IMG/VR virus record: IMGVR_UViG_3300011727_000001
Span: 19,900-83,899 of that record
Direction: 5' to 3' (one strand)
DNA from: a virus
Taxonomy: Duplodnaviria > Heunggongvirae > Uroviricota > Caudoviricetes
DNA length: 64,000 nt
Shown piece by piece: positions 651 to 59,769 of the stretch (position 1 is its first letter; every line of letters starts with the position of its first letter). A model generated the notes under the pieces. The model had not been told where the DNA came from. It searched no databases and saw only the letters and a program-made list of their open reading frames with translations. The translations under genes and the position numbers were made by a program.

Positions 651-1604
651 TTAATTACTCTTAGCGAGACCGGCTGCGATGCGAGAAGCGCCAAAAAGCT
701 GGTCACCCCGCTTAGCAATTTCCTGCTGAGACTGTGTGCCAGAGTTATTATGGCGTGAACCTGCACCCGGCGTCATCTTTGCCTTCATCAGGGAATCTTT
801 ATCCGGATCAGCCTCTACGATCTTGCGCAAAGCTGCATCAAAAGACAAAGGTTCGCCACCGGCGTCGACAAGAGGCGTGCGGCCGGATGCGCCAGCGGGC
901 TTGTCATAAGCGACCGTCTTACCGTCCTTCATCTCAAAGTGACTGCCGTAAAGAACGCGAGCTTTTGTAGGCGTCAGAACCAGATCTTCAGAAATGAATT
1001 TGGAGGTCGCAAAGTTTTGACCAACGGTGAGATTGTCGATGTCGCCAGAAAGGGTCTTGATCGTTCCCTGAAGCGTATTGCGTTCTTCATCCCATGCCTT
1101 GCGTTCAGCTTCGCGCTCTTCAGCGATACGCTGCTTCAGACGATCATATTCGCCTTTAGCTTCGAGATCCTTCTCTTCACGGGTCTTTTCCGCTTCGAGC
1201 AGAGCCTTCACCTTATCGAGATCGATGCCTTTGAACTTGGCCAGCTCGGTATTAGCCGTCAGCAGAGCTTCTTCAGTTTCCTTCAGTTTGCCCTTCTTTT
1301 CCATGACTTCGCGCAGGAGTTTGCTTTTCTCCTTTTCGCTTTCGCTCATGTTTTTTTCGGCTTCTTCCTGAGCTTTGCGGTCAGCTTCCGCTTTTTCCGC
1401 GGCAGCCTTTTCAGCAGCAGCTTTCTCGGCACTAGCCTTTTCTGCGGCCGCCTGCTCAGCGGCAGCTTTTTCCGCTTCACTTGGCTCAGTCGCGCCGCCG
1501 CCTGCTCCGGTTTCTGGAGCCAGGAATGGTTTAGGGCCGCGGCCTGACATAATGGTAGCGATACCACCGCCAGCAGCCAATGCACGTTTCAGGACAACAC
1601 TCAT
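651..1604 (-). CDS. Probable head scaffolding protein (Ala/Glu/Lys-rich coiled coil)
   Basis: 317 aa. Low-complexity AEKAAAEK repeats and heptad-like charged segments. Lies between the portal and capsid genes. Confidence 0.5.
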   Translation of the reverse strand: MSVVLKRALAAGGGIATIMSGRGPKPFLAPETGAGGGATEPSEAEKAAAEQAAAEKASAEKAAAEKAAAEKAEADRKAQEEAEKNMSESEKEKSKLLREVMEKKGKLKETEEALLTANTELAKFKGIDLDKVKALLEAEKTREEKDLEAKGEYDRLKQRIAEEREAERKAWDEERNTLQGTIKTLSGDIDNLTVGQNFATSKFISEDLVLTPTKARVLYGSHFEMKDGKTVAYDKPAGASGRTPLVDAGGEPLSFDAALRKIVEADPDKDSLMKAKMTPGAGSRHNNSGTQSQQEIAKRGDQLFGASRIAAGLAKSN

Positions 1605-3303: not shown

Positions 3304-3330
3304 ATTAAGTCAGCGCTTACTTATTTGCAA
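3304..3330 (-). promoter_or_regulatory. Conserved promoter-like motif upstream of the portal gene
   Basis: TAAGTCAGCGCTTACTTATTTGCAAGG, between the terminase stop codon and the portal start. Confidence 0.45.
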
Positions 3331-5273: not shown

Positions 5274-5304
5274 CCTTAACTAAGCGCTTACTTATAGACT
5301 AGCC
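5274..5304 (-). promoter_or_regulatory. Conserved promoter-like motif upstream of the TerS gene
   Basis: CCTTAACTAAGCGCTTACTTATAGACTAGCC, 11 nt upstream of the start codon. Confidence 0.45.
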
Positions 5305-5329
5305 GGAGAAGCATTCCCTGTCCACTTTC

Positions 5330-5360
5330 TTAATAAGTAATTAATTACTTAATATAATAA
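5330..5360. promoter_or_regulatory. Perfectly palindromic variant of the motif (TAAGTAATTAATTACTTA)
   Basis: 18-bp perfect palindrome read directly; AT-rich surroundings. Confidence 0.4.
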
Positions 5361-9646: not shown

Positions 9647-9669
9647 TGTTAAGTAACTACTTACTTACC
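9647..9669. promoter_or_regulatory. Promoter-like motif in a divergent intergenic region (ParB2 gene on minus strand, helicase gene on plus strand)
   Basis: GTTAAGTAACTACTTACTTACC. Confidence 0.4.
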
Positions 9670-12668: not shown

Positions 12669-12708
12669 ATCCGTTTTTAGCTAGAACACGAAATAGCTAA
12701 AAACGGAT
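12669..12708. promoter_or_regulatory. 15-bp perfect inverted repeat (ATCCGTTTTTAGCTA n10 TAGCTAAAAACGGAT) just upstream of the ParA gene; candidate operator or centromere-like site
   Basis: Read directly. Contains the TAGCTAAA element that recurs elsewhere in the window. Confidence 0.5.
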
Positions 12709-12715
12709 ATAGCCA

Positions 12716-13375
12716 ATGAGCGAATTAGTGATCGCGTGCCTATCCCAGAAGGGCGGCGTAGGTAAATCTACCCTCGCTCGTTTGATCGCCAGAACTTATG
12801 CTTCTGCCGGCTGGCGCGTAAAAATAGCTGACTTCAATACCAAACAGCTCACCTCTGTCGATTGGGTGGGCATGAGAATGTCTACCGATATGGTGCCGGA
12901 GATTGCGGCGGAGCCATATACCTCGGTCAAGGGTTTCAAGCGCGAGCCGTTTGATTTGATCGTTGCCGATGGCAAGCCTGATAGTGATAACTCCAGTCTG
13001 GATATCGCTAAGGCCGCGCAGCTGGTGATTATTCCAACCGGTTTGGCTTTGGACGATCTTAAACCCCAAATCCTATTCGCGAACGAACTGGTTTCAAAAG
13101 GCGTTGACCGCAAGCGGATCTTAATCGTCCTGAATAAAATCACCGAAAGCACAACTGCTGTTCAAGAGGCGCGCGAATATCTGCGGTCAGCTGGGTATCA
13201 GATCGCGGAAAACGACCTTACTGCAAAGACCGGCTATCAGATGGCGCAGAATATCGGCCGGTCGGTAGCTGAAACGAATTTCCAATCTCTGAACGAGCGC
13301 GCCGATGAACTGGCCGCAGAAATTGTCCAGAAGATGAACGAATTATCGGAGGCCGCAAATGAGCAAGGCAAGTAA
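12716..13375 (+). CDS. parA: ParA/MinD-family partition ATPase
   Basis: Deviant Walker A LSQKGGVGKST. 219 aa. Confidence 0.8.
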   Translation: MSELVIACLSQKGGVGKSTLARLIARTYASAGWRVKIADFNTKQLTSVDWVGMRMSTDMVPEIAAEPYTSVKGFKREPFDLIVADGKPDSDNSSLDIAKAAQLVIIPTGLALDDLKPQILFANELVSKGVDRKRILIVLNKITESTTAVQEAREYLRSAGYQIAENDLTAKTGYQMAQNIGRSVAETNFQSLNERADELAAEIVQKMNELSEAANEQGK

Positions 13376-13616
13376 TCCAACCAAAGCCCCTGTGCCAAAG
13401 CCAGCCCGTTCGCTCAAAATGAGCTTTATGGGAGCCGCTGTAGCCCCGACAACTCCTGCAAGCAATATGACCGAAAAGCTGAAGGATATGAGCTTTAAAG
13501 TCGATCCGGAGTTTCACCGTCGCTACAAATCAGCGGCGGCGCTTAATGGCGTTCAAATGAAGGATATCCTTGAACAAAGCTTTGAACTCTGGCTGGAAAA
13601 GCAGAATTCAAAATGA
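13359..13616 (+). CDS. ParG-like small DNA-binding partner (putative ribbon-helix-helix C-terminus)
   Basis: 85 aa. Overlaps the ParA stop. Disordered basic N-terminus and structured C-terminus, typical of ParG/RHH centromere-binding proteins. Confidence 0.4.
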   Translation: MSKASNPTKAPVPKPARSLKMSFMGAAVAPTTPASNMTEKLKDMSFKVDPEFHRRYKSAAALNGVQMKDILEQSFELWLEKQNSK

Positions 13617-14783: not shown

Positions 14784-15362
14784 ATGACAACTTCTGAAAA
14801 TGCATTCTTCATCGCTGTATCTAATCGCGCAAAAGACGTGAAAAGCGAAAGCAACAAACAGCTTGCTATGAAGTTAGCAACAGCAATATCGCTTTCGAAA
14901 AACACAAACTTTCTTGAAAAGCTGAATGTTTCATCTGCTGATTTTGTTGATACGAAACACGCTGCTGACAAGCTTTGCTTGTATAGCATCAGACAGATAG
15001 TCAATGTTGTATCTGCTATCACAAAAGCGACAGAACGCGCTTCACTGCATGACATAAGCGAAACAGTCTTTGCAGCGCTTCGCACAATGATCAACTTTTC
15101 AAACGCTGATCGCGCTTTCACAAAAGCTGACTTATGCGCTTGTATTGATAGCGCTGCGAAGATCAGCGACGATAAAAAAGCGCTGATCTATCGTAAGAAA
15201 GCAATGCACGACGCTGCTTATGCAAATCGTCAAATGACAATCGCGCTCAACGTAATGCGCGTTCTGAAAATGATCAAAACAGAAAACAAGTTTGAATATA
15301 CTGTAGCGAAGAATAACAGCGCAGTTAAAGCACTCAATAAGCTGTTTGATGAACATAAGTAA
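14784..15362 (+). CDS. Hypothetical all-alpha protein in an AT-rich island with atypical codon usage
   Basis: 192 aa. Strong preference for A-ending codons (GCA/ACA/AAA), unlike the surrounding genes. Confidence 0.5.
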   Translation: MTTSENAFFIAVSNRAKDVKSESNKQLAMKLATAISLSKNTNFLEKLNVSSADFVDTKHAADKLCLYSIRQIVNVVSAITKATERASLHDISETVFAALRTMINFSNADRAFTKADLCACIDSAAKISDDKKALIYRKKAMHDAAYANRQMTIALNVMRVLKMIKTENKFEYTVAKNNSAVKALNKLFDEHK

Positions 15363-15365
15363 TCA

Positions 15366-15399
15366 CTGACTTAGCGCGCTGAAATATGCGCGCTAAGTC
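15366..15399 (+). terminator. 13-bp perfect inverted repeat (TGACTTAGCGCGC n8 GCGCGCTAAGTCA) directly after the 14784 gene; possible terminator without a clear T-run
   Basis: Read directly. Confidence 0.35.
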
Positions 15400-15430
15400 A
15401 CTCAGAACCCCTCGGCGCATCCCGCGCCAC

Positions 15431-15607
15431 ATGACGAGTAGTTCCATGACATTGATTATTCTCAGTTCCTTGGCGGCTCTAGTCGCACGACGCTCATACC
15501 TCGCATTCGATTATCCGTCCGAGCGAAACATATTCGCCTTGGTGATGTCACTCACTCTGCTGGCCGTAATCGCTGTTGGAAGCATGGAAGTTCCTACGCA
15601 TGTATAG
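15431..15607 (+). CDS. Small membrane protein (two predicted TM segments)
   Basis: MTSSSMTLIILSSLAALVARR...LVMSLTLLAVIAVG. Confidence 0.3.
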   Translation: MTSSSMTLIILSSLAALVARRSYLAFDYPSERNIFALVMSLTLLAVIAVGSMEVPTHV

Positions 15608-15788
15608 CGTGATGCTTTTGACAGTGATCGGAACCGGTGCCGGCTCAGTGACGGAAACTCAGATCATTGAGACGGTGCCGACGATTGATGAATGTCTCGA
15701 TTTCAGTGGCCGCTTTCAGCCTCGAAAGATCATTTTACCGACCGGCCAGATGCTGACGATTAAACTGGCGTGTGAGAAGCAAGCATGA
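15576..15788 (+). CDS. Small hypothetical protein with a hydrophobic N-terminus
   Basis: 70 aa; overlaps both neighbouring genes. Confidence 0.3.
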   Translation: MEAWKFLRMYSVMLLTVIGTGAGSVTETQIIETVPTIDECLDFSGRFQPRKIILPTGQMLTIKLACEKQA

Positions 15789-15967
15789 GCAGGAAACAGA
15801 AAGACGCGCCGGAGCTGTATGTGGCTCCGCACAAATACAAACGCGAAACCTTGGCCGCTAGAACGGCGGCCTGGGACACTCTGGATCTGGATGACCTTAA
15901 TCCGCTGGCAGAGATGAATATTCCGATTGGTGTCCTGATTAAGTCCAGCTTTGAAAGGGAGTATTGA
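15785..15967 (+). CDS. Small hypothetical protein
   Basis: 60 aa, start/stop overlaps with neighbours. Confidence 0.3.
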   Translation: MSRKQKDAPELYVAPHKYKRETLAARTAAWDTLDLDDLNPLAEMNIPIGVLIKSSFEREY

Positions 15968-16139
15968 TATGGCTATGACTAATGCAGAAAAGGTGCGCGC
16001 CTATCGCGAACGCCAAAAGATCGCCAAGGGAAGTCCGATCCGGATCAGCCTCACCAAAGGCGAACGCGAAACCCTAATGAGGGCGCTGGAAACCACGGGT
16101 ATGCAGGACAATCCCCTATATGAGCGCCTGAAAGCCTAA
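15951..16139 (+). CDS. Small basic hypothetical protein
   Basis: 62 aa; last gene of the plus-strand island. Confidence 0.3.
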   Translation: MKGSIDMAMTNAEKVRAYRERQKIAKGSPIRISLTKGERETLMRALETTGMQDNPLYERLKA

Positions 16140-16149
16140 CACCCAATTA

Positions 16150-16172
16150 CCCGCTTCGGCGGGTTTCTTTTT
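16150..16172 (+). terminator. Rho-independent terminator
   Basis: CCCGC-ttcg-GCGGG followed by TTTCTTTTT. Confidence 0.7.
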
Positions 16173-16186
16173 GGCTAATCACCACC

Positions 16187-16588
16187 CCATGGCCGCCCCA
16201 AATTTGGACTATAGCCGAGGGAAGGGCGTTCCTCCGCCGGCTCCCATGGCTACACCATGGCGCTTTAGCTAAATGGCTGTAACGCTAAGCCTATAAATAG
16301 CTAAATCGTTACCATGGACACCCTAGGCAACCCACGGGACACCATGGAAAGGGTAGGGGCTAAAATCCCCACAGAAGCCCGTAGACGCGCCCCATGGGGA
16401 AATATAGAACACACTCGCACCCATGGGCTTAAAGCGCCCCTATGCCCCGTTATGTCGATCTGGGGTGGGTTTCTGACCTGTATATGGCGCACCCCGGTTC
16501 CATCCGGCGCCCGCTCCCATGGAGCCCACCGGTTCCAGAAAACCCCATGGGCCGACGTCACCAGGGATCTCCCATGGCAAACCATGGG
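16187..16588. repeat. Array of ~11 irregularly spaced CCATGG iterons, extended consensus (C/A)CCATGG(G/C)
   Basis: Hexamer at about 16187, 16236, 16255, 16312, 16345, 16395, 16425, 16519, 16548, 16572 and 16583. About 0.1 copies expected by chance in 400 bp. Confidence 0.6.
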
Positions 16589-16655
16589 CTGAGACTGGCC
16601 AAAAACAAAGGGTGACCCGTCGATCACCCTTGGTTCATTGAGCTGGACTGATGCT

Positions 16656-17447
16656 TTACGCCGCCAGCACCTCTTCGAGACGACGGGTCTGTGGACTGTC
16701 GATCAGTTCATAGACCGGTGCACGGAACGATCCGGAGTTCTTGACGATGCCCATAGTCTGAAGCGCAGTCATGGTAGAGGATGTCTGCGTAGACATGGTG
16801 CCTGGGTCAACTGTGTGCCGGATCAGAATGGCTTGCATCGCCTTGGACACTTTCACTTTGTCACACACCGCAGCTTTAGCCATCTCCCCTGTGAAGCTTT
16901 CACCTGCTTTGCGGAACGAGAACAAGGATTTGCACACCGCGATATTGACCTTGTTCGTCATTGTCCCGTCGCGCAGGGCCTTCACAATGTCCGCCAGCTT
17001 CTCCACGGCATAGACGTTGTAGCGTGAACCTTCGGATACTGAGCGGTTCACGAATTCAGGCTCGACCTGTGAGGCGATCAGAATTGCCGCTGCAGAAGGC
17101 ATGACCAGTTTCGCCCGTGATTTGTCGAGGTTCTTCTGGATGCGATCATTGTTTGGGTTCTTGGTGCGCTCATAGGCAGCGCGGTCATCAAAACCCTTGG
17201 CAACTTTGTTCGCCATCGCCAAGCGCTCCGCATCCGTGTAACCATCAGCCAATTGGGTGAGGGACTGTTCCGGATCGGTGCTTGTCGGGGCAGGGCCGGC
17301 CGAGACTTGGACTGTTTCCGGTGATTTCGCAGTATCTCCGGTGTCATCTTCAAGTGCCTGAAGCATTGCCAAGTCGTGATCTGTAAGTTCCGCCGCGTTA
17401 ACGGTTACAGGCGTTACTAATGCTTTATTGTTATTCTTGCGAGCCAT
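16656..17447 (-). CDS. Hypothetical protein (263 aa) embedded in the repeat-rich region
   Basis: The only long ORF between 16.2 and 18.7 kb. No motif recognised. Confidence 0.45.
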   Translation of the reverse strand: MARKNNNKALVTPVTVNAAELTDHDLAMLQALEDDTGDTAKSPETVQVSAGPAPTSTDPEQSLTQLADGYTDAERLAMANKVAKGFDDRAAYERTKNPNNDRIQKNLDKSRAKLVMPSAAAILIASQVEPEFVNRSVSEGSRYNVYAVEKLADIVKALRDGTMTNKVNIAVCKSLFSFRKAGESFTGEMAKAAVCDKVKVSKAMQAILIRHTVDPGTMSTQTSSTMTALQTMGIVKNSGSFRAPVYELIDSPQTRRLEEVLAA

Positions 17448-17559
17448 GATTTTTAACTTTCTCTCTTTTATTCGTAAGCGTTATTGCTTTCGATAATTAG
17501 AGAATAGAACGCTAATTCGTGGTTGTCGGCTGGTAAAACGAGGTTTGTTGCTATGGTTA

Positions 17560-18130
17560 TATTATGCGGAACGGCATCGCCGCGTGTGGAGCCGGAAGGT
17601 TCTTTGGTCAGGCCGTGGATTTCCATGGGCGCGCCGCGGCGTTTACGAGCCGGAGAATTCTTACCCTAGGAGGCGCGAAAAACCTCTTTACGAACCGGAG
17701 GATTTTAGCTGACCCTTAATTCGCGTCTCCATACTATGTATATAGTTATTTAAATAACTAATAAGTTACTTACTAAGTTTGGAAAAAAATTAAGGGTCAG
17801 CGTTTTCAAGGGAACTCTCCGGCTCGTATAAAACGTGGCGCGAAAGTTGGTGGGATGTTATATCCGCGGAGGTGCCGTGGTTGTTCCGAGGTCAGACCAT
17901 GGATGCGCCGCGGTGTTTCCTTGGTTGCTCCATGGGTGGATGGGGAAATTTGCTGGGAGATCCCGTTGAACCATGGCGCGGCCCACAATCCACCGCACTT
18001 ACTTCTCACCAACTTCTCACCAGCTTCTCTTTCATTTCCCACGCATATCTCCTTCACTTCTCATCAGCTCTATAACTCACCACACCTACGCAGCTATCTT
18101 CTCTATGGTGCATACGTCTCTACGCCATGG
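17560..18130. repeat. Complex repeat region: direct repeats of TTTACGARCCGGAGRATT (two copies plus one inverted), of CATGG(G)CGCCGCGGYGTTT (two copies), further CCATGG copies, CTTCTCACCA repeated twice, and a ~140-nt pyrimidine-rich tract (17990-18130)
   Basis: All repeats read directly. Candidate origin or regulatory region. Confidence 0.45.
17705..17802 (-). promoter_or_regulatory. Promoter-like motif (CTAATAAGTTACTTACTAAG) plus palindrome TAGTTATTTAAATAACTA, inside a 14-bp inverted repeat (GCTGACCCTTAATT / AATTAAGGGTCAGC)
   Basis: Read directly. Confidence 0.4.
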
Positions 18131-18570
18131 CTCTCTTGCGCTACTGGTCTGTTAGTGTCTTCTATCGCCGGATCGTCATTTAGCTTATTCCGTAAATAGC
18201 TATTTATTGACGTCATAACCCTTATCAGGCCAGTGTTGTGCGTGATCTATGATTATATGATCGCTAATTCGCTCAGATTTGCTCACCTGATAGCGTTTAT
18301 ATGTATTTGCTTATCAGTAATCATCTGGAGAGTGTTTGCGCTCTGGTGAGCTTCTATGCGCTTTTCTATATTCAGCTGATTAGCCTTATAGCGGTTTACA
18401 TATTTCGCTTTTTAGCGATATGGCGGTTTTCATGTAAACTTGCTGCTAACTTAGCGCTAAGGAGTTTCTTATTTGCCATAAGAAGGTCTATATCAATTAG
18501 AACTGTCATTCCGGAACCGTAACGATATCGTTCCATGGGATCGGGCGACCGTGGCTTGACATAATGTAAA

Positions 18571-18606
18571 GGAAAAGCCGAGACGCTTTCAGGAACGTCC
18601 CGGCTT
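18571..18606 (-). terminator. Rho-independent terminator on the minus strand (11-bp stem with one mismatch, U-run on the minus strand)
   Basis: GGAAAAGCCGAGACG...CGTCCCGGCTT. Confidence 0.45.
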
Positions 18607-18721
18607 AGGTTGACGAAGGATAGTGTTTAAGAGCGCTACCTCTTCGTCATTATCGGTGTTGTTCCACTACGCCGAAGAGCAAGGCATAGTTTGCACGACC
18701 GCCGACTGCGCGCTTAACTGA

Positions 18722-19102
18722 TTAGATCGTGGTGAGCAGCATTACCTCTGTGATGCCTTTGACAGCATGTTCCAGCGATTTCGCTTGCAGCTGTAGATTA
18801 AGCGACCGTTTTGATCCGTCACTCAGACATGACAGATTATGAGCGTCCGGCTCATATGCGATATCCACGACGTAGATCTCTTCCGGTTCGTTATCGAATT
18901 CCATACGCAGAATTTCGACGAGCACGCCTTGGTTGATCAGAAAGCTTCCGGATTCTGTGAGCGCGTCGTATTCCTTTAGCGTTAAGTGCGCCGGAAGTGG
19001 CTCGAAGCGATTGATTAGAGCGCTGTAAATTACAGTGTGATGATGCTCCAGCTGCGCGCGATCCGGACGCGTTTGAATGAAGTCCTTGGCTAATACAGTC
19101 AT
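18722..19102 (-). CDS. Hypothetical protein
   Basis: 126 aa. Confidence 0.35.
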   Translation of the reverse strand: MTVLAKDFIQTRPDRAQLEHHHTVIYSALINRFEPLPAHLTLKEYDALTESGSFLINQGVLVEILRMEFDNEPEEIYVVDIAYEPDAHNLSCLSDGSKRSLNLQLQAKSLEHAVKGITEVMLLTTI

Positions 19103-19330
19103 TGCGCTTTCCCCTCAGCCTTGCATGTATTCGTTGATTGAATCCACAGCAGCGTCGATTGCTTCGCGACGTGTCATAGTTCCGGCGCCAAAACGCTCGT
19201 TCATTTCACGATAGACACTACGCGCAACTGATAAGATCCATGCTTTGCTCATTGTTCTTCTCTGCTCTGTTTGTTTCGATAATTAGTTATCGCATGAGCA
19301 GAGAAGGGGATCGGTTGGATTGTTTAGGTA

Positions 19331-19498
19331 TTAGTCTTCCGACTGTTGCTCCTGCTTGAGGCGATCGGTTAAATCGCAAAGAGAGTTTTCTTCCTCTTCG
19401 GTAAGATTCCATTCACCGGCGCCGATCTGCATCTGAAACTCCGTTGACAAAATAGCCTTTCGGAGAGCCGCCTTTTCTGCCTCATTAAGATTGTTCAT
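19331..19498 (-). CDS. Small acidic hypothetical protein (~55 aa)
   Basis: MNNLNEAEKAALRK.... RBS AAGGAA. Below the ORF-track cutoff. Confidence 0.3.
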   Translation of the reverse strand: MNNLNEAEKAALRKAILSTEFQMQIGAGEWNLTEEEENSLCDLTDRLKQEQQSED

Positions 19499-19504
19499 TT
19501 GTAA

Positions 19505-19545
19505 TTCCTTCTATTTATTTAGCTAAATAGCTTATTAGTTAATTA
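19505..19545 (-). promoter_or_regulatory. Second-class intergenic motif TTTAGCTAAATAGCTTATTAGTTAATTAGC
   Basis: GCTAAATAGC family. Related copies at 12669-12708, 14455-14492, 16262-16312, 18176-18215 and 20600-20640. Confidence 0.4.
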
Positions 19546-19603
19546 GCCCTCATCATCAAATAGACGCCGAGGATCATGAGCGCTACACCGACCCATGTCA
19601 TGG

Positions 19604-19861
19604 TCAGCTCACGGCGCGCTCGTTCATCATCTGACGGGTTTCAAACATCGGATGCTTAAGTTTGGGCTCGAAGTCCCGTCTCCATTCGCGATAGTTCACC
19701 GGATCGAATTCGATTTGCTTCCTGCAACTGGCGCAATACCAACTGTGTGATCCGTGGTTCCACCACTCTGCCGGGGCGGTCTGACAAAGTGTTCTGTTGC
19801 AGCTGCCGCCTTCCTTGCCCTTGTCAGGCTTATCCGGCCCCTTATAATCACCGTATGCCAT
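19604..19861 (-). CDS. Small Cys-rich (zinc-binding?) protein
   Basis: 85 aa with CNRTLC and CASC pairs. Confidence 0.35.
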   Translation of the reverse strand: MAYGDYKGPDKPDKGKEGGSCNRTLCQTAPAEWWNHGSHSWYCASCRKQIEFDPVNYREWRRDFEPKLKHPMFETRQMMNERAVS

Positions 19862-20112
19862 TATTCGTTCTCCGGAGTGAAAATCGGACTTTCAGTAAAA
19901 TTGGCATCCTGTTCCGCGATACCTGTCGGATCAAAGATGTCACAGAACAAACCAATGGCGTCTTGCACAAATTGAGGCGCTTTCTCCAGGTCGTGAGCCT
20001 GAACGAACCAATCTGTGAAGGCTTTAATTTGCGCAACATCCTCTTTTCCGATTAAGTCACGCACGGCTTTGTAGTGGTCGATCGTCGCCTGGGTTTCTGC
20101 CGATATAGCCAT
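19861..20112 (-). CDS. Hypothetical protein
   Basis: 83 aa, acidic. Confidence 0.35.
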   Translation of the reverse strand: MAISAETQATIDHYKAVRDLIGKEDVAQIKAFTDWFVQAHDLEKAPQFVQDAIGLFCDIFDPTGIAEQDANFTESPIFTPENE

Positions 20113-51878: not shown

Positions 51879-53647
51879 GCCACACAGGCATTTTCACGCG
51901 CCTTCTTTTGCGCCGCGTTTTCACCATTGCGATAGTAAAGCGATTTCAGACCGCCCCGCCATGCTGCGCGGATAATGTCGATATCGTCCTTCATGGTAGC
52001 TTCGTTGCGAAGAACGATGTTCATGGACTGTCCCTGATCGACATAAACGCCACGATCAATGCCCTGTCGGACAACTTCATGCTGATCAATGTCGATCCAC
52101 GGTTTGAAGACTTCCTTTTCCAGATCGGTCAGAAAATCGAGATGATCAACGCGACCGCCTTGCTTCATAACTGAACGCCAGACGTCGGCGGTATCTTTTC
52201 CGTGACGCTGGAGAACTTCGCGGAAGATTGGACAGTATTGCGTGAAGATAACCTTCGCAGCATCATTTTCAAAAACGACAGCCTCTTCCGGCTCAATCGA
52301 CTTCGAAACCTGTCCACAAATGACTGAGGAGGATTGCGTCGGCGCGATAGCGTTAACGGTCAGATTACGCATACCGTAACCCTTCATCCCCTCTGGCTCA
52401 CCAAATTTCTCCGCCAGCCAGCGGGACGCGGCGATGGATTCTTCGTGAATATACTTATGAACTTCGATGTTCAAAGCCCGTGCATCTTCACTTTCGAACG
52501 GGATCATCTTCGATTTAAGCAGTGAGTGATAACCCAGGGTGCCAAGACCGAGCGCACGCCAGCGAACGGCAAAACGATGAGCATCTGCCAGCAAACGATA
52601 CTTAGGATTTTTATCCGGCTCAATCTTGTCGATGTAATCCGACATCACAGCATCGAGGAAATAAATCATTTCACGAATGAATGGGGTATTTTTCCATTCA
52701 TCATAATAGAGAAGATTTGCCGATGAGAGATTGCACACAAAACTTTCATTCGGGCTGGAAGGCAGCATGATTTCGGTGCAGAGATTTGATGCGTGAATAT
52801 CGATTCCAAGGTCTTTCAGAACCTGTGGCTTTGCGCGATTAGCGTTGCCTGGGAAGAAGATAAACGGACGACCGGTTTCGCGGCGTTTATTACGAATTTT
52901 CGCCATCAAATTACGACGAGGAGAGCCTTTTGGATCTGTTTCAAGGGCTTCCATAAATTCGTCAGTGAGACCAACAGCGAAATCAAGATGCTGGATCTTA
53001 TGATGCACACCGCCAGCGATGGAGCGCATTTTCAGCCATTCTTCAATGTCCGGATGATCAACATTGAGATAAATGCAGCATGAGCCGCGACGAACGGACG
53101 ACTGCGAAACCACCTCGATATCCTCCTGAAGGAGGCGTGCGAAGTGAACCGGCCCGTTGGACTCGCCACCTTTGCTGATCGGTGTTCCAAACGGACGCAA
53201 TGCGCTCATGGCAACCGATGTGCCAGCACCGGCACCGGTCATAGCGCCAACTTCTGCAACCTTCCACAGAATGGAGTCGAGATTGTCGTCCATATAGGAG
53301 CCGTTACATGAAATTGGCAGCGCACGTCCGGCGCCAAAGTTTGACCAGACCGGCGAAGATGGCGAGAACCAGCCACGCTTGGCGCCATGGCGCAAGGTCG
53401 GAAGAGGAAAGCCGAGAATATTTTCGGCAGCTTCAATCATATCTTCCAAGCGATCCACAGCGGCGGCGAGGAGGGCGTCATGCGCCACTCCCGCTTTTAA
53501 ATAACCGCGTGAAAGCACCTGTAGAGAGATTTCATTGAGGTGGTGATAATCTGGACGGCTCATATGTTTCTTATCCTTAAAAGTCATCGTCTTCCGCGGC
53601 ATCTGCTTGCGTGTAGCTGGTTGGTTCGGAGTTGAAGAAATCGACAC
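51866..53647 (-). CDS. nrdA: Ribonucleotide reductase class I alpha subunit (no ATP cone); real start probably an internal Met (about 53587 or 53563), to avoid overlap with nrdB
   Basis: Active-site NLCTEI, a downstream active-site Cys region, and a C-terminal CVAC redox pair. Confidence 0.75.
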   Translation of the reverse strand: MSISSTPNQPATRKQMPRKTMTFKDKKHMSRPDYHHLNEISLQVLSRGYLKAGVAHDALLAAAVDRLEDMIEAAENILGFPLPTLRHGAKRGWFSPSSPVWSNFGAGRALPISCNGSYMDDNLDSILWKVAEVGAMTGAGAGTSVAMSALRPFGTPISKGGESNGPVHFARLLQEDIEVVSQSSVRRGSCCIYLNVDHPDIEEWLKMRSIAGGVHHKIQHLDFAVGLTDEFMEALETDPKGSPRRNLMAKIRNKRRETGRPFIFFPGNANRAKPQVLKDLGIDIHASNLCTEIMLPSSPNESFVCNLSSANLLYYDEWKNTPFIREMIYFLDAVMSDYIDKIEPDKNPKYRLLADAHRFAVRWRALGLGTLGYHSLLKSKMIPFESEDARALNIEVHKYIHEESIAASRWLAEKFGEPEGMKGYGMRNLTVNAIAPTQSSSVICGQVSKSIEPEEAVVFENDAAKVIFTQYCPIFREVLQRHGKDTADVWRSVMKQGGRVDHLDFLTDLEKEVFKPWIDIDQHEVVRQGIDRGVYVDQGQSMNIVLRNEATMKDDIDIIRAAWRGGLKSLYYRNGENAAQKKARENACVACEA

Positions 53648-58575: not shown

Positions 58576-59410
58576 CGATGGAAATCAGAGCGTCTTCGGG
58601 GAGCGCATCGAGGAATTTACCGATACGTTCGTTCCATTCGTCTGCATCGGTCTCATTACTGACGATGCCGAACCAACCCATGCTGCCGCGTTCGGCCCAT
58701 TTACGATCGGTTACGATTGCAAGGGTGGAGATTGCACGATCACGGGCGGCCTGAATGTATTTTTCACGACCCACAAGCAAAGCATCTTTGTCGAAAAAGA
58801 AGCCATCGCTACCAAGATTTTCAGCAATTTTTACGATTTGCGGCTGAGAGTGATATTGCTCGCGCGCCTTCTGATGATCTTTTGAGTTTTCATCAAAAAC
58901 CTGCTGCCAGCTCTTCCAAGCTTCTTCAACGCCGGTCATCGCTTTATCGTATGCTTCACCAGCCTGCTTACCGGCTTCATCACGCATACCATCGATATCG
59001 ATTTCGCACTTTTTCAGACTGTCGTGGCGCTTGCCGTCTTTACCGAGCAAGAAGCCGCTCCAGCGACCACCAACAGTGTAATAATCCCACTTTTTATCTG
59101 GGTTGGTGCGATTGATCGCTTTTACCAGTTCACCAGCCTCATCAACGGTATGATAGCCGTATTTATGCTCGTCATCTGTATCCGGTTCGCTGCCGAATTC
59201 GACCTTTTTCAGACCGTAATAGTCTGTCGCGAAAGCGGAGATCGTTGGATAATCCGGATCGTCTTTGCGACCTTCGTAATCGGCGCGGATCTCTTCGGTT
59301 TGATCGACATCCTGAATGAATTCATCGTCGTGACCGGTGCATTCAAATTCATGGAAAGGCGCGAGGTTGTGATCTACGTCACCAATGACCATTGCTGCAA
59401 AATGTGACAT
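58559..59410 (-). CDS. Hypothetical protein (283 aa) between sbcC and sbcD
   Basis: No motif recognised. Trp/Asp-rich. Confidence 0.4.
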   Translation of the reverse strand: MSHFAAMVIGDVDHNLAPFHEFECTGHDDEFIQDVDQTEEIRADYEGRKDDPDYPTISAFATDYYGLKKVEFGSEPDTDDEHKYGYHTVDEAGELVKAINRTNPDKKWDYYTVGGRWSGFLLGKDGKRHDSLKKCEIDIDGMRDEAGKQAGEAYDKAMTGVEEAWKSWQQVFDENSKDHQKAREQYHSQPQIVKIAENLGSDGFFFDKDALLVGREKYIQAARDRAISTLAIVTDRKWAERGSMGWFGIVSNETDADEWNERIGKFLDALPEDALISIVDCHI

Positions 59411-59412
59411 GC

Positions 59413-59769
59413 TTATTCTCCTTGATTAATCGCAGCCGACAGATCGCCGGACATTGCTGCGCGTTGAATATTGGTCTCGCGTGCGGGACGAGCCGTTGGT
59501 TTCTTTTGTGTGGATGTGACGTTGGCCGAAGAATGCTTCGCACTGCGCGTGGAGATATTGGCGCGAGGATTACGATCACCGGTCTGCTCGGTTTGTTTGA
59601 TTACCGTGCAGCGATCGCCGTCTTTGTTTTTATACATTTGGGCGGTCGGGTAGGGCAGATCGCGAATGACCTGCTCAACAATGGTGGTCTTTTCGCCAGT
59701 TTTCTTACCCTTTGCATCGAAAACCGATACAATGTGCTGGTTTGCGAGTTTGACGGTATAGAGTTGCAC
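59413..59769 (-). CDS. Hypothetical protein (GTG start)
   Basis: 118 aa, basic C-terminal half. Confidence 0.35.
   Translation of the reverse strand: MQLYTVKLANQHIVSVFDAKGKKTGEKTTIVEQVIRDLPYPTAQMYKNKDGDRCTVIKQTEQTGDRNPRANISTRSAKHSSANVTSTQKKPTARPARETNIQRAAMSGDLSAAINQGE

Follow-up and report, generated by a model that had tools for sequence, protein, structure and literature searches.

Is the repeat-rich stretch at 17560-18130 of this phage DNA a replication origin, a set of structured RNAs or some other kind of control element? The original prediction, made for the window (the whole 64,000-nucleotide stretch that was analysed), proposed a regulatory DNA region with initiator-type repeats and, alternatively, structured RNAs. 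Every repeat motif it listed is present where it was placed, and a cis-acting element built of repeated protein-binding sites and conserved in relatives is well supported by the analysis described below. The flagged stretch forms the centre of a conserved DNA control region that contains no genes. Judged from sequence, its most likely role is that of a replication origin or a comparable maintenance site, and not that of an RNA gene. For the specific reading that we prefer, a RepC-independent replication origin accompanied by its binding protein and control array, we estimate a probability of roughly 35%.

A gene-free region conserved among phage-plasmids

The window belongs to a phage-plasmid of the pLM21S1/RHEph10 type. 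This placement is based on the portal protein, which is 63% identical to that of the Rhizobium phages RHEph10 and B1VFA, and on homologous circular plasmids of 115-119 kb in Shinella, Methylobacterium, Sinorhizobium, Rhizobium and Pararhizobium. The group has been termed phage-plasmids in the literature (PMC4447125, PMC12509600). The flagged interval lies within a non-coding gap of 1.27 kb (17448-18721), upstream of a minus-strand gene (16656-17447) for an orphan protein of 263 aa, predicted to bind DNA through a winged helix and hereafter called WH. A nucleotide search with 16100-18700 against the phage collection gave no match, and relatives were gathered via protein similarity instead. A gene-free gap of 1.15-1.9 kb precedes the WH gene in each of the 12 relatives for which genes were called or annotated. 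Down to about 35-40% protein identity, the relatives keep this gap together with its AT-rich palindromic core, inward-facing CCGGAG repeats, hexamer arrays that flank the gene and a G-poor/purine-rich tract. The resulting 2.6-kb module was found in cultured Rhizobium phages, in Shinella, Methylobacterium and Agrobacterium plasmids and in uncultured relatives, and is located at the end of a 107-kb co-directional gene array. Lack of conservation in related phages, which the original prediction had named as grounds against itself, is thus clearly not what is seen.

A coding role of the gap was rejected, as tblastn matches to relatives were obtained in all six frames. The open reading frames called at 17806-18199 are probably spurious, as had been suspected, because translated similarity to the relatives is even across the six frames. 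A tRNA scan found none. The original prediction counted a switch of transcription direction among the features of its ~2.5-kb regulatory region; the switch is at 16140-16655, behind the 263-aa gene and outside the flagged interval.

CCNNGG hexamers at one-helical-turn spacing

Our principal new finding concerns the CCATGG-type sites, which prove to be CCNNGG hexamers spaced by one helical turn. Array B (17864-17935) consists of seven hexamers at exact 11-bp steps, namely CCGCGG (17864), CCGTGG (17875), CCGAGG (17886), CCATGG (17897), CCGCGG (17908), CCTTGG (17919) and CCATGG (17930), with an extra site beyond it at 17971. Array A (17613-17639) has three hexamers, CCGTGG, CCATGG and CCGCGG, at 10- and 11-bp steps, and is followed by CCTAGG at 17665. 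The third array, downstream and behind the WH gene (16187-16587), comprises 11 CCATGG together with CCTAGG and CCACGG, and includes phased runs at 16312/16322/16332/16342 (4 x 10 bp), 16244/16255 and 16572/16582. The two CATGG-motif copies noted originally do exist, as CCATGG-GCGCCGCGGYGTTT at 17623-17644 and 17897-17918 (86% identical), but they are fragments of these strictly periodic arrays, which had been overlooked.

CCATGG occurs 25 times in the whole window against 11.6 expected, a number reached in none of 100 shuffles, and 17 of the 25 sites fall in 16187-18538. Across 16 lineages, the distances between hexamers peak at 10 bp (49 observed versus 3.0 expected), with further peaks at 11 bp (20), 20-22 bp (41) and 30-31 bp (22). 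In each of the seven genomic stretches examined (12.6-64 kb), the two densest 500-bp windows of hexamers adjoin the WH gene, one on its upstream and the other on its downstream side. The central dinucleotide of the hexamer is variable. We also considered a cluster of methylation sites in analogy to GATC in oriC and P1 and rejected it, on account of this variability and because no methyltransferase gene is known in pLM21S1 (PMC5537653).

Inward CCGGAG repeats around an AT-rich palindromic core

Arrays A and B flank the inward CCGGAG repeats and the AT-rich palindrome. Direct copies of TTTACGAGCCGGAG are found at 17642-17660 and 17687-17705. Their core ACGAGCCGGAG is directed toward the palindromic core on the plus strand (exact at 17645-17655, with one mismatch at 17690-17700), and an exact inverted copy lies on the minus strand on the other side of the palindromic core (17817-17827). 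A degenerate fourth copy of this repeat, GAGCCGGAAGG, is located at 17589-17604. Within the 64-kb window, exact ACGAGCCGGAG copies are confined to this region. Inward CCGGAR pairs surround the AT-rich core in 14 of the 16 rhizobial-clade loci, as compared with a mean of 0.02 loci in mononucleotide shuffles and one locus for outward-facing pairs.

The core itself spans about 95 bp (17708-17801). Its outer arms form a perfect 14-bp inverted repeat, GCTGACCCTTAATT (17708-17721 and 17788-17801), within which the perfect 18-bp palindrome TAGTTATTTAAATAACTA is nested (17744-17761); the inner arms, CCAWACTWAGTA and TACATAGTATGG, are imperfect. The segment 17731-17790 is the second least stable 60-bp duplex of the 64 kb (-60.8 kcal/mol versus a mean of -84.8, sd 5.0). 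When the flagged interval was compared with shuffled sequences, only the palindrome folded better, and it did so on both strands (z -6.0 and -4.4). The arms of the core are unchanged on both sides with no compensatory change, and the covariation term is unfavourable (+2). An RNA hairpin reading of the central palindrome was thus rejected for its lack of covariation. Invariant, non-covarying arms are as expected for symmetric protein sites. Because the gap has no coding signal and no Rfam match, and no covariation was detected in its centre, we regard the element as acting at the DNA level.

A purine-rich repeat tract in the distal part of the gap

The tract at 17990-18130 had been described as about 140 nt of pyrimidine only with almost no G. 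These 141 nt contain 55 C, 44 T, 29 A and 13 G, so that the tract is 70% pyrimidine, while its G-poverty is confirmed: the G-poorest 140 nt of the window start at 17982, with 10 G versus a window mean of 33.8 (sd 5.3). Read on the minus strand, 17985-18160, beyond array B as seen from the palindromic core, is a purine-rich, C-poor, degenerate direct-repeat array with the cores TAGAG, GAGAG and GAGAA, in which TGGTGAGAAGT is repeated 2.6 times at an 11-bp period. The corresponding 11-bp unit CTTCTCACCA has 2.6 tandem copies at 18001-18029, and a third copy is found at 18056. The composition of the tract is conserved in relatives down to 39% identity, but its sequence is not; the repeat cores total 147 versus 85 expected.

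At the 3' end of the tract, a conserved minus-strand element, GCGGTGGA-N6-GGCCGCGCCATGGTT (17969-17996), has the family consensus GGTGG-N4-8-(G)CCGCGCC-RY-GGTT. On the other side of the tract, the palindrome AAATAGCTATTT is located at 18194-18205, and the zone 18268-18487 is A-rich and T-poor on the minus strand and conserved at the nucleotide level in close relatives. This zone contains the dyad motifs TTCTTAT-N5-ATAAGAA (18466-18484) and TTAGCGCTAA (18451-18460), as well as GCTCACC...GGTGAGC within 18343-18358 and 18279-18296. The motifs TTAGCTAA and TAATYATCGAAAS are only mildly enriched. Toward the start of the gap, an intrinsic terminator on the minus strand (18575-18606) ends the long upstream minus-strand gene array.

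An orphan gene for a predicted winged-helix protein

The model of the WH protein has a disordered N terminus (residues 1-60), a helical domain and a clear C-terminal winged helix, whose predicted recognition helix hardly varies within the family. Searches against Pfam, PHROGs and PDB sequences gave no match, Rep families included. Structure searches returned generic winged helix-turn-helix matches, with MarR/ArsR-type proteins on top and no Rep among the top matches. The gene has no neighbour between its own promoter region and an intrinsic terminator (16608-16631, minus strand), and no NTPase shares an operon with it. Conserved blocks and the rhizobial sigma-70 consensus point to a candidate proximal promoter at 17502-17530 on the minus strand, GCCGAC (17530-17525), N17 and CTATTC (17507-17502). 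A 5'-UTR hairpin, TCGAAAGC...GCTTACGA (17472-17493, minus strand), lies just upstream of the ribosome-binding site, and the sequences of one relative, L001, read directly, show compensatory changes at two stem positions.

A proposed replication origin independent of RepC

Which function could unite these parts? The genes for the initiators of P1 and mini-F encode winged-helix DNA-binding proteins of about 250-290 aa, with a control array directly behind. P1 oriR-repA-incA and mini-F ori2-repE-incC resemble the module in their order of array, AT-rich region, promoter, winged-helix gene and second array, and P1, which is also a phage-plasmid, has separate plasmid and lytic origins. Two features looked for in an origin are present here: an AT-rich unwinding element adjoining the repeats (17731-17790) and a second repeat array behind the gene (16187-16587). 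We propose that the WH protein would place a recognition helix in each major groove to bind the hexamers and, on either side of the core, would polymerise along a single face of the DNA. Such a coating might wrap or strain the DNA so that the AT-rich core opens. The core would then be an origin independent of the distant RepC replicon, probably a lytic-cycle origin, comparable to the pair of oriR and oriL in P1. The array behind the WH gene could titrate the initiator or pair with it, and the proximal promoter would be autoregulated. The purine-rich tract may provide strand asymmetry for priming or helicase loading, or may form a stable purine-RNA:DNA hybrid.

The likeness to P1 and mini-F has limits. 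Iterons there are asymmetric, 19-22 bp long and set at about two-turn steps, whereas the module has 6-bp palindromic cores at 10-11-bp steps. The hexamers are therefore not iterons in the sense of 17-22-bp direct repeats at about two-turn spacing, and the 11-bp unit of the purine tract (2.6 copies) also falls short of them. Unlike P1 and mini-F, the module has no DnaA boxes and its WH protein has no detectable similarity to Rep_3/RepA, and it adds the inward CCGGAG repeats, the nested palindrome and the purine-rich repeat tract. Neither DnaA boxes (TTATCCACA or TGATCCACA, at most one mismatch) nor IHF consensus sites were found in the window; the relatives have at most isolated one-mismatch DnaA boxes (L008, L011). 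GANTC sites are few, and a near-CtrA box, TTAAGGGnnnnCTAA, is found in close relatives only. The ori/crr system of the phage-plasmid P4 is similar to the module in having short (8-bp) initiator sites in both orientations, in two separated cis clusters bound by a winged helix. In contrast, P4 alpha is a large primase-helicase, and the P4 clusters are 4.5 kb apart and do not flank the gene for the binding protein. We know of no description of one-turn periodic arrays in P4.

The same elements carry RepC, which is encoded by pLM21S1, RHEph10, B1VFA and the Shinella plasmid (PMC4447125). In the Shinella plasmid, repC is at 52406-53488 and the module at 116.2-117.4/0-1.1 kb, a separation of 53-64 kb; in pLM21S1, repC (1-1110) and the module (about 62.4-64.8 kb) are about 64 kb apart. 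Since RepC and repABC origins sit inside repC, the module at such a distance is not the RepC origin. GC skew, one of the checks originally suggested, gave no origin signal, being monotonic in the window and, cumulatively, in the complete 117-kb Shinella plasmid. It is uninformative here because nearly all genes are on one strand. An apparent skew minimum inside the gap was rejected as an artefact of the record start position.

Further considerations weigh against an origin. The family already has an initiator in RepC; one-turn phasing is a trait more of plasmid centromeres, R1 parC and tubC being examples; and the distance between core and gene, together with a degenerate phage-wide palindrome in the core, fits a regulated promoter equally well. 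A stronger version of our preferred reading, which we advance only as a speculation, would be that a WH polymer on phased CCNNGG arrays around an AT-rich, cruciform-prone core, with a purine tract for a stable RNA:DNA hybrid or strand-specific loading, represents a kind of lytic origin not described before. Such an origin would require neither DnaA nor RepC, and would be shared by phage-plasmids of Alphaproteobacteria and by their relatives from the environment.

A possible centromere-like element

The first alternative is a centromere-like (segrosome) or incompatibility element, in which the WH protein or an 85-aa RHH-like protein acting as ParB would form a filament on the arrays and ParA would segregate the plasmid prophage. 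In R1, parC consists of two sets of five 11-bp repeats around a promoter, and the 12-bp repeats of tubC are bound by the winged-helix protein TubR. Both parC/ParR of R1 and tubC/TubR of pBtoxis share with the module short repeats at about one turn (11-12 bp), which form two blocks around a core and lie directly upstream of the gene for a small coating DNA-binding protein. TubR is among the weak Foldseek matches of the WH protein. A ParA operon encoding the RHH-like partner is located 3.3 kb from the WH gene on the other strand and is syntenic in relatives, and basic, disordered N termini are found in both the WH and the RHH-like proteins. Moreover, AAATAGCTA, which is half of AAATAGCTATTT, is found in the gap, again at 16295 in the downstream array, and at 12691 in the inverted repeat that precedes parA, with five exact copies against 0.37 expected.

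Unlike in parC and tubC, however, the operon of the WH gene contains no ParM or TubZ motor or other NTPase partner. The only NTPase nearby is the type-I ParA, which has a partner protein and an upstream inverted repeat of its own. The core of the module also differs from these centromeres in being a 95-bp AT-rich nested palindrome with 1 kb of further conserved non-coding DNA. A centromere could do without this palindrome, the CCGGAG pairs and the purine-rich repeat tract. We consider a centromere-like or incompatibility element a serious but rather unlikely reading of the module.

A possible autoregulated promoter or switch

The AT-rich core could instead be a promoter for the host or a phage sigma factor, repressed by WH protein coating the arrays and controlling WH and downstream early or maintenance genes, possibly in a lysis-lysogeny decision. 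The core holds TAAGTAACTTATTAGTTA, a degenerate copy of the phage-wide 18-bp palindrome TAAGTAAGC.GCTTACTTA, which is found 20-40 nt upstream of many genes (34 matches versus 6.3 expected), and a sigma factor is encoded by one of the relatives. In most lineages the core is set off from the start of the WH gene by a fairly constant 280-350 bp, the MarR/ArsR-type winged helices that top the structure searches are in keeping with such a role, and a sigma-70-like TGGAGA-N18-TAAAAT is present at 17731-17702 on the sense strand of WH. Nevertheless, the proximal candidate about 75 nt upstream of the start codon is better conserved, so the core is not needed for WH expression. The CTATAAA element that precedes the other palindrome copies is absent from the core. 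The sigma-70 promoter scan gave a number of sites not above that in shuffles. Plain autoregulation would also leave the 1.3-kb gap, the second array and the purine tract, kept down to 39% identity, without explanation. This reading is rather unlikely.

A possible transcribed RNA

The structured RNAs that had been proposed for the flagged interval found no support: neither an Rfam match nor covariation was obtained there, and the palindrome folds on both strands. An RNA function might still take the form of a long purine-rich leader or non-coding RNA from the minus strand, or of a core antisense transcript stopped by Rho at the plus-strand tract. As RNA, the plus strand of 17985-18130 has 39% C and 9% G and folds with -8.7 kcal/mol over 146 nt; it is thus C-rich, G-poor and essentially unstructured, like a rut site. 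Strand-asymmetric composition blocks are conserved in all relatives, and both flanks have covarying RNA elements, the 5'-UTR hairpin on one side and, at the gap start and outside the flagged interval, an RNA-like element on the minus strand (18654-18713) with nine pairs showing compensatory changes. The latter consists of GCGCGCAGYCGGCGGUCGUGCAA, a variable hairpin and then GGAAYAACACCG, and has no Rfam match.

Against an RNA speak the Rfam scan of 15000-20000 on both strands, in which nothing relevant appeared at E<=1, the palindrome as the sole segment folding above shuffles, and the absence of covariation from the centre. The conserved motifs CCATGG, AAATAGCTATTT and TTAGCGCTAA are palindromes without loops and cannot form RNA hairpins. 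Upstream of the tract there is no sign of a conserved promoter, and inspection of the core by eye revealed no convincing plus-strand promoter. The strand asymmetry of the tract is accounted for by direct repeats of an asymmetric motif. Pairing between the GA-rich and C-rich tracts was rejected on composition, as there is too little U for A. A transcribed RNA as the function of the region is thus very unlikely.

A possible genome end or telomere

The module might also lie in, or border, the direct terminal repeat (DTR) of the virion genome, with its repeats as terminase or early-promoter signals. P1 pac is built of palindromic hexamers flanking the cleavage site. Like the module, it has hexamer clusters (TGATCA/G in P1) around a central site, but it measures 162 bp, lies inside a gene and uses Dam methylation sites as hexamers, whereas the centre of the module hexamers is free. 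The module is located where the 107-kb co-directional gene array stops, and in B1VFA it spans, with two small genes, about 3.7 kb between strand switches. B1VFA and V1VFA-S have DTRs of 3.6 and 3.9 kb, the coordinates of which are unpublished (PMC12509600). The V1VFA-S record, a non-rotated linear contig with high coverage of its 'terminal regions', starts about 17.7 kb upstream of the module, however, and the module is kept in stably maintained circular plasmids. Of seven short metagenomic contigs, four begin no more than about 220 nt from the gap start, but the right ends are scattered and miss the module borders on that side; a collapsed DTR gives no graph branch, and contig ends and record starts argue only weakly against this reading. 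We regard a genome end or packaging region as highly improbable. A telomere-resolution site was rejected, as the related replicons are circular, the complete Shinella plasmid has no annotated protelomerase and the palindrome centre varies among close relatives.

Implications for the pLM21S1/RHEph10 group

Rhizobia and related soil bacteria commonly carry phage-plasmids of the pLM21S1/RHEph10 group. To our knowledge, the group is known only from genome announcements, and what is known of its replication, segregation and lifestyle amounts to a RepC homologue and ParA. What emerges from the analysis is a cis-acting module of 2.6 kb that has an orphan protein of its own, predicted to bind DNA, and a precise, testable architecture: hexamers phased at 10-11 bp, CCGGAG pairs that point inward, an AT-rich core and a repeat tract rich in purines. 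Should the module prove to be a second origin or a centromere, it would offer a way to construct vectors, cure these elements and understand their incompatibility, as well as a sequence signature by which the family could be spotted in metagenomes.

Results

A conserved gene-free gap in a family of plasmid-like prophages

PHROG and Pfam scans of the window identified portal, large terminase, rIIA/rIIB, ribonucleotide reductase, NAD-salvage enzymes, an SbcC-like nuclease, a DEAD-box helicase, ParB-N-domain proteins and a small ParA. The portal shares 63% identity with its counterparts in the Rhizobium phages B1VFA, V1VFA-S, RHEph10 and the RHph series. These phages also carry homologues of the 263-aa orphan winged-helix protein encoded at 16656-17447 on the minus strand, as do 115-119-kb circular plasmids of Shinella, Methylobacterium, Sinorhizobium (pLM21S1), Rhizobium (pRlX6) and Pararhizobium. 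The group comprises plasmid-like prophages with a RepC-like replicon and ParA (PMC4447125, PMC12509600, PMC7969092); we found no mention of the non-coding region 5' of the winged-helix gene in the searchable literature on the group.

On the minus strand, the sense strand of the adjacent genes, a long upstream gene array ends at 18722 and is followed by an intrinsic terminator (18606-18575). A 1.27-kb gene-free gap extends to the start codon of the 263-aa gene at 17447. The gene has its own intrinsic terminator (16631-16608), behind which a CCATGG array (16587-16187) extends to the terminator of a convergent plus-strand block (16149-16172, plus strand). The interval singled out in the original prediction, 17560-18130, makes up the half of the gap nearer the promoter. 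All the repeats listed for it are present where they were described; transcription direction switches at 16140-16655, behind the gene and outside the interval.

Conservation of the repeats in related phages had been proposed as a check. Among homologous loci drawn from IMG/VR, GenBank phages, plasmids, Logan/ENA/NCBI assemblies and JGI metagenomes, the gap and its architecture do recur, in distant lineages without shared sequence. The gap 5' of the homologous gene measures 1.15-1.9 kb in 12 of 12 relatives with called or annotated genes. Within it, nucleotide blocks are common to six close lineages (64-97% protein identity), whereas in more distant ones the layout is retained and the sequence is not. 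Read in the direction of the gene, nearly all the relatives examined, metagenomic ones at 39-53% protein identity among them, show the following order ahead of it: an A-rich T-poor zone, a G+A-rich C-poor tract, a C-rich zone, the AT-rich core and a second C-rich zone. The region is non-coding, since its translated similarity to relatives is equal across all six frames.

The Shinella zoogloeoides plasmid CP132310 (117457 bp, circular, clinical isolate) is a complete close relative encoding repC, dnaE, a sigma factor, a DnaB-like helicase and at least two HTH regulators; its genes are co-directional over about 107 kb, and this array stops at the module, by which we mean the arrays, the core and their gene surroundings. 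The 370-kb conjugative Agrobacterium vitis megaplasmid pAvCG78b carries a full non-coding copy (locus L053, 3632-5435) with GTTGACA repeats, A-rich zone, GA tract, CCATGG array and a perfect palindrome around the AT-rich core, followed by a truncated winged-helix gene of 143 aa, likewise in two other A. vitis plasmids.

Helically phased hexamers and the winged-helix protein

The main new finding is the helical phasing of hexamers in the module. Seventeen of the 25 CCATGG sites in the window fall within 16187-18538, and no shuffle of the window reached 25. The sites belong to a CCNNGG class whose central dinucleotide is lineage-dependent: CCATGG and CCACGG occur in the window, and CCTAGG, CCAAGG and CCGCGG in B1VFA and pLM21S1. 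Because the arrays of B1VFA, V1VFA-S and pLM21S1 use the latter three, the central dinucleotide is free to change. CCATGG itself is nearly absent from the stretches of these three genomes that were sampled (three sites in B1VFA 1-50000, none in V1VFA-S 1-26000 or pLM21S1 52207-76749), a scarcity that suggests avoidance of an NcoI-type restriction system.

When 16 lineages were pooled, site-to-site distances peaked at 10 bp (49 observed, 3.0 expected from random placement), with further peaks at 11 bp (20), 20-22 bp (41) and 30-31 bp (22). Array B contains seven hexamers in exact 11-bp steps (17864, 17875, 17886, 17897, 17908, 17919 and 17930), array A three (17613, 17623 and 17634), and the downstream array a four-hexamer run in 10-bp steps (16312-16347) plus two doublets. 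The two copies of CATGG-GCGCCGCGGYGTTT reported earlier are present, not as isolated copies but as fragments of arrays A and B. The two densest 500-bp hexamer windows flank the 263-aa gene, one on each side, in all seven genomic stretches tested (12.6-64 kb), and distant metagenomic relatives have CCATGG runs with 10-11-bp steps 5' of the gene.

Alone or across 20 homologues, the 263-aa protein matched no Pfam family and gave a single marginal PHROG match (E 0.0045) to a family of unknown function; it has no sequence relative among solved structures. Its AlphaFold model (pLDDT 81) begins with a disordered N-terminus (1-60) that has a basic tip, followed by a helical domain and, at the C-terminus, a winged helix. 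The array period fits a winged-helix dimer, whose two recognition helices touch consecutive major grooves at a spacing of about 10-11 bp. Across the family the predicted recognition helix hardly varies, and neither does the CC..GG frame of the hexamers. We infer that the protein binds the hexamer arrays.

A nested palindrome between the arrays

A nested imperfect palindrome occupies the space between arrays B and A. The ACGAGCCGGAG copies of the original prediction, pointing inward, form its outer elements. Such inward CCGGAR pairs surround the AT-rich core in 14 of 16 rhizobial-clade loci, against 0.02 in shuffles and 1 for the outward-facing control; the motif is absent from the distant metagenomic clade. 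Further inward follow CCCTTAA/TTAAGGG arms, CCAWACTWAGTA/TACATAGTATGG arms and a centre of about 45 bp with 85% A+T. Only one other 60-bp duplex in the 64-kb window is less stable than the core, which is also the sole segment with a fold better than that of shuffled sequence, and this on either strand (z -6.0 and -4.4). Alignment of six lineages showed no variation at the paired positions of either arm, with an unfavourable covariation term; the arms therefore resemble symmetric protein-binding sites rather than an evolving RNA helix. Many conserved motifs (CCATGG, AAATAGCTATTT, TTAGCGCTAA) are loop-less palindromes, which rules out reading them as RNA hairpins. Elsewhere, the palindrome TTAGCTAA stands in short tandem (3.6 copies) at 19519-19547, intergenic and just 5' of a small minus-strand gene.

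A conserved candidate promoter, GCCGAC-N17-CTATTC (17530-17502, minus strand), lies just 5' of the 263-aa gene, so the AT-rich core is not needed as its promoter. A 5'-UTR hairpin, also just 5' of the gene, shows compensatory changes.

A G-poor tract and a candidate RNA

The tract at 17990-18130, described as pyrimidine-only, has 29 A and 13 G beside 55 C and 44 T, yet it is strongly G-poor: the 140 nt from 17982 hold 10 G, the window minimum (mean 33.8, s.d. 5.3). On the sense strand it is purine-rich and C-poor. Its sequence cannot be aligned even among close relatives, whereas its composition is conserved. Degenerate direct repeats make it up; their cores, TAGAG, GAGAG and GAGAA, number 147 over 23 lineages against 85 expected from dinucleotide-preserving shuffles, with about half of the lineages individually significant. 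The window tract contains TGGTGAGAAGT with an 11-bp period, and tracts always terminate in a conserved GGTGG-N4-8-(G)CCGCGCC-RY-GGTT (here 17996-17969). A direct-repeat array of an asymmetric motif accounts for the strand asymmetry without any need for transcription. If transcribed, the plus strand (39% C, 9% G, -8.7 kcal/mol over 146 nt) would match the textbook description of a Rho-loading site, and the minus strand would give a purine-rich RNA that might form a stable template hybrid.

Clear tandem units occur inside some purine tracts (11 nt x2.6 at window 18001-18029; 27 nt x4 at 1689-1843 of the relative's locus L031), with a TGGTG(A/T)GA-like core in common. Purines, and A in particular, are scarcest in the window at 1270-1420 (10 A per 140 nt); since this stretch lies inside a DUF6651 gene (651-1604, minus strand), it probably encodes a low-complexity segment.

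At the gap start, 18654-18713 (minus strand, running to the terminator at 18575) is a candidate small structured RNA. It comprises GCGCGCAGYCGGCGGUCGUGCAA, a variable hairpin and then GGAAYAACACCG. Across six lineages nine of its pairs show compensatory changes, among them an outer-stem replacement of U-A by C-G. It has no Rfam match. A phage promoter motif stands immediately ahead of it in two relatives (L001 and L048).

The par locus and a phage-wide palindrome

At 12671-13616, ParA (12716-13375) overlaps an 85-aa gene (13359-13616) whose product looks like a ribbon-helix-helix ParG/omega-type partner. Just 5' of the ParA gene is a 13-bp perfect inverted repeat, CCGTTTTTAGCTA...TAGCTAAAAACGG. 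Its half AAATAGCTA is also found at 16295 and 18194-18205; the window contains five exact occurrences, where 0.37 would be expected.

A phage-wide 18-bp palindrome, TAAGTAAGC.GCTTACTTA, has about 17 window sites (34 matches, 6.3 expected), for example at 3315-3323, 5286-5351, 9650-9667, 11520, 25751, 33167, 41298, 51567 and 54616. It stands 20-40 nt 5' of start codons, often with CTATAAA ahead of it, which then reads TATAAATA in the manner of a T4 late promoter. The intergenic motif of B1VFA differs (TAGCTAnCCAGCTA), and the Shinella plasmid encodes its sigma factor at 59004-59660. Duplex stability over 60 bp is lowest in the window at the AT-rich intergenic stretch 5286-5351, which is crowded with three or four TAAGTAA palindrome copies in both orientations, 5' of a 221-aa gene preceding terminase.

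Discussion

We tentatively favour a RepC-independent origin, at a probability of roughly one in three, because arrays, AT-rich core, promoter, winged-helix gene and second array follow the same order as in iteron replicons, among them P1 oriR-repA-incA and mini-F ori2-repE-incC, and because P1 is a precedent for a phage-plasmid with separate plasmid and lytic origins. We found no DnaA boxes, and the 263-aa protein lacks Rep homology, both of which count against an origin, and the case for one is far from closed. GC skew, another check proposed originally, was uninformative on this point. A centromere is a rival reading: one-turn-phased short repeats in two blocks around a core are the signature of R1 parC and tubC, and the nearby, syntenic ParA operon with its RHH-like partner has an operator carrying AAATAGCTA, also present in the module. 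A repressible promoter is possible, as the core holds a degenerate copy of the promoter-associated palindrome. That the module marks a genome end is weakly disfavoured, because the non-rotated V1VFA-S contig begins 17.7 kb from it; the first position of the B1VFA record seems to fall shortly downstream of the expected repC position, according to the gene order it has in common with pLM21S1, and repC itself was not located in B1VFA. The RepC origin is ruled out, as the complete Shinella plasmid has RepC 53-64 kb from the module.

The module may act as an origin, a centromere or a switch. The architecture is new in detail, with known principles underneath, and the module is real and conserved: a DNA-level element for maintenance or control, with an orphan binding protein dedicated to it.
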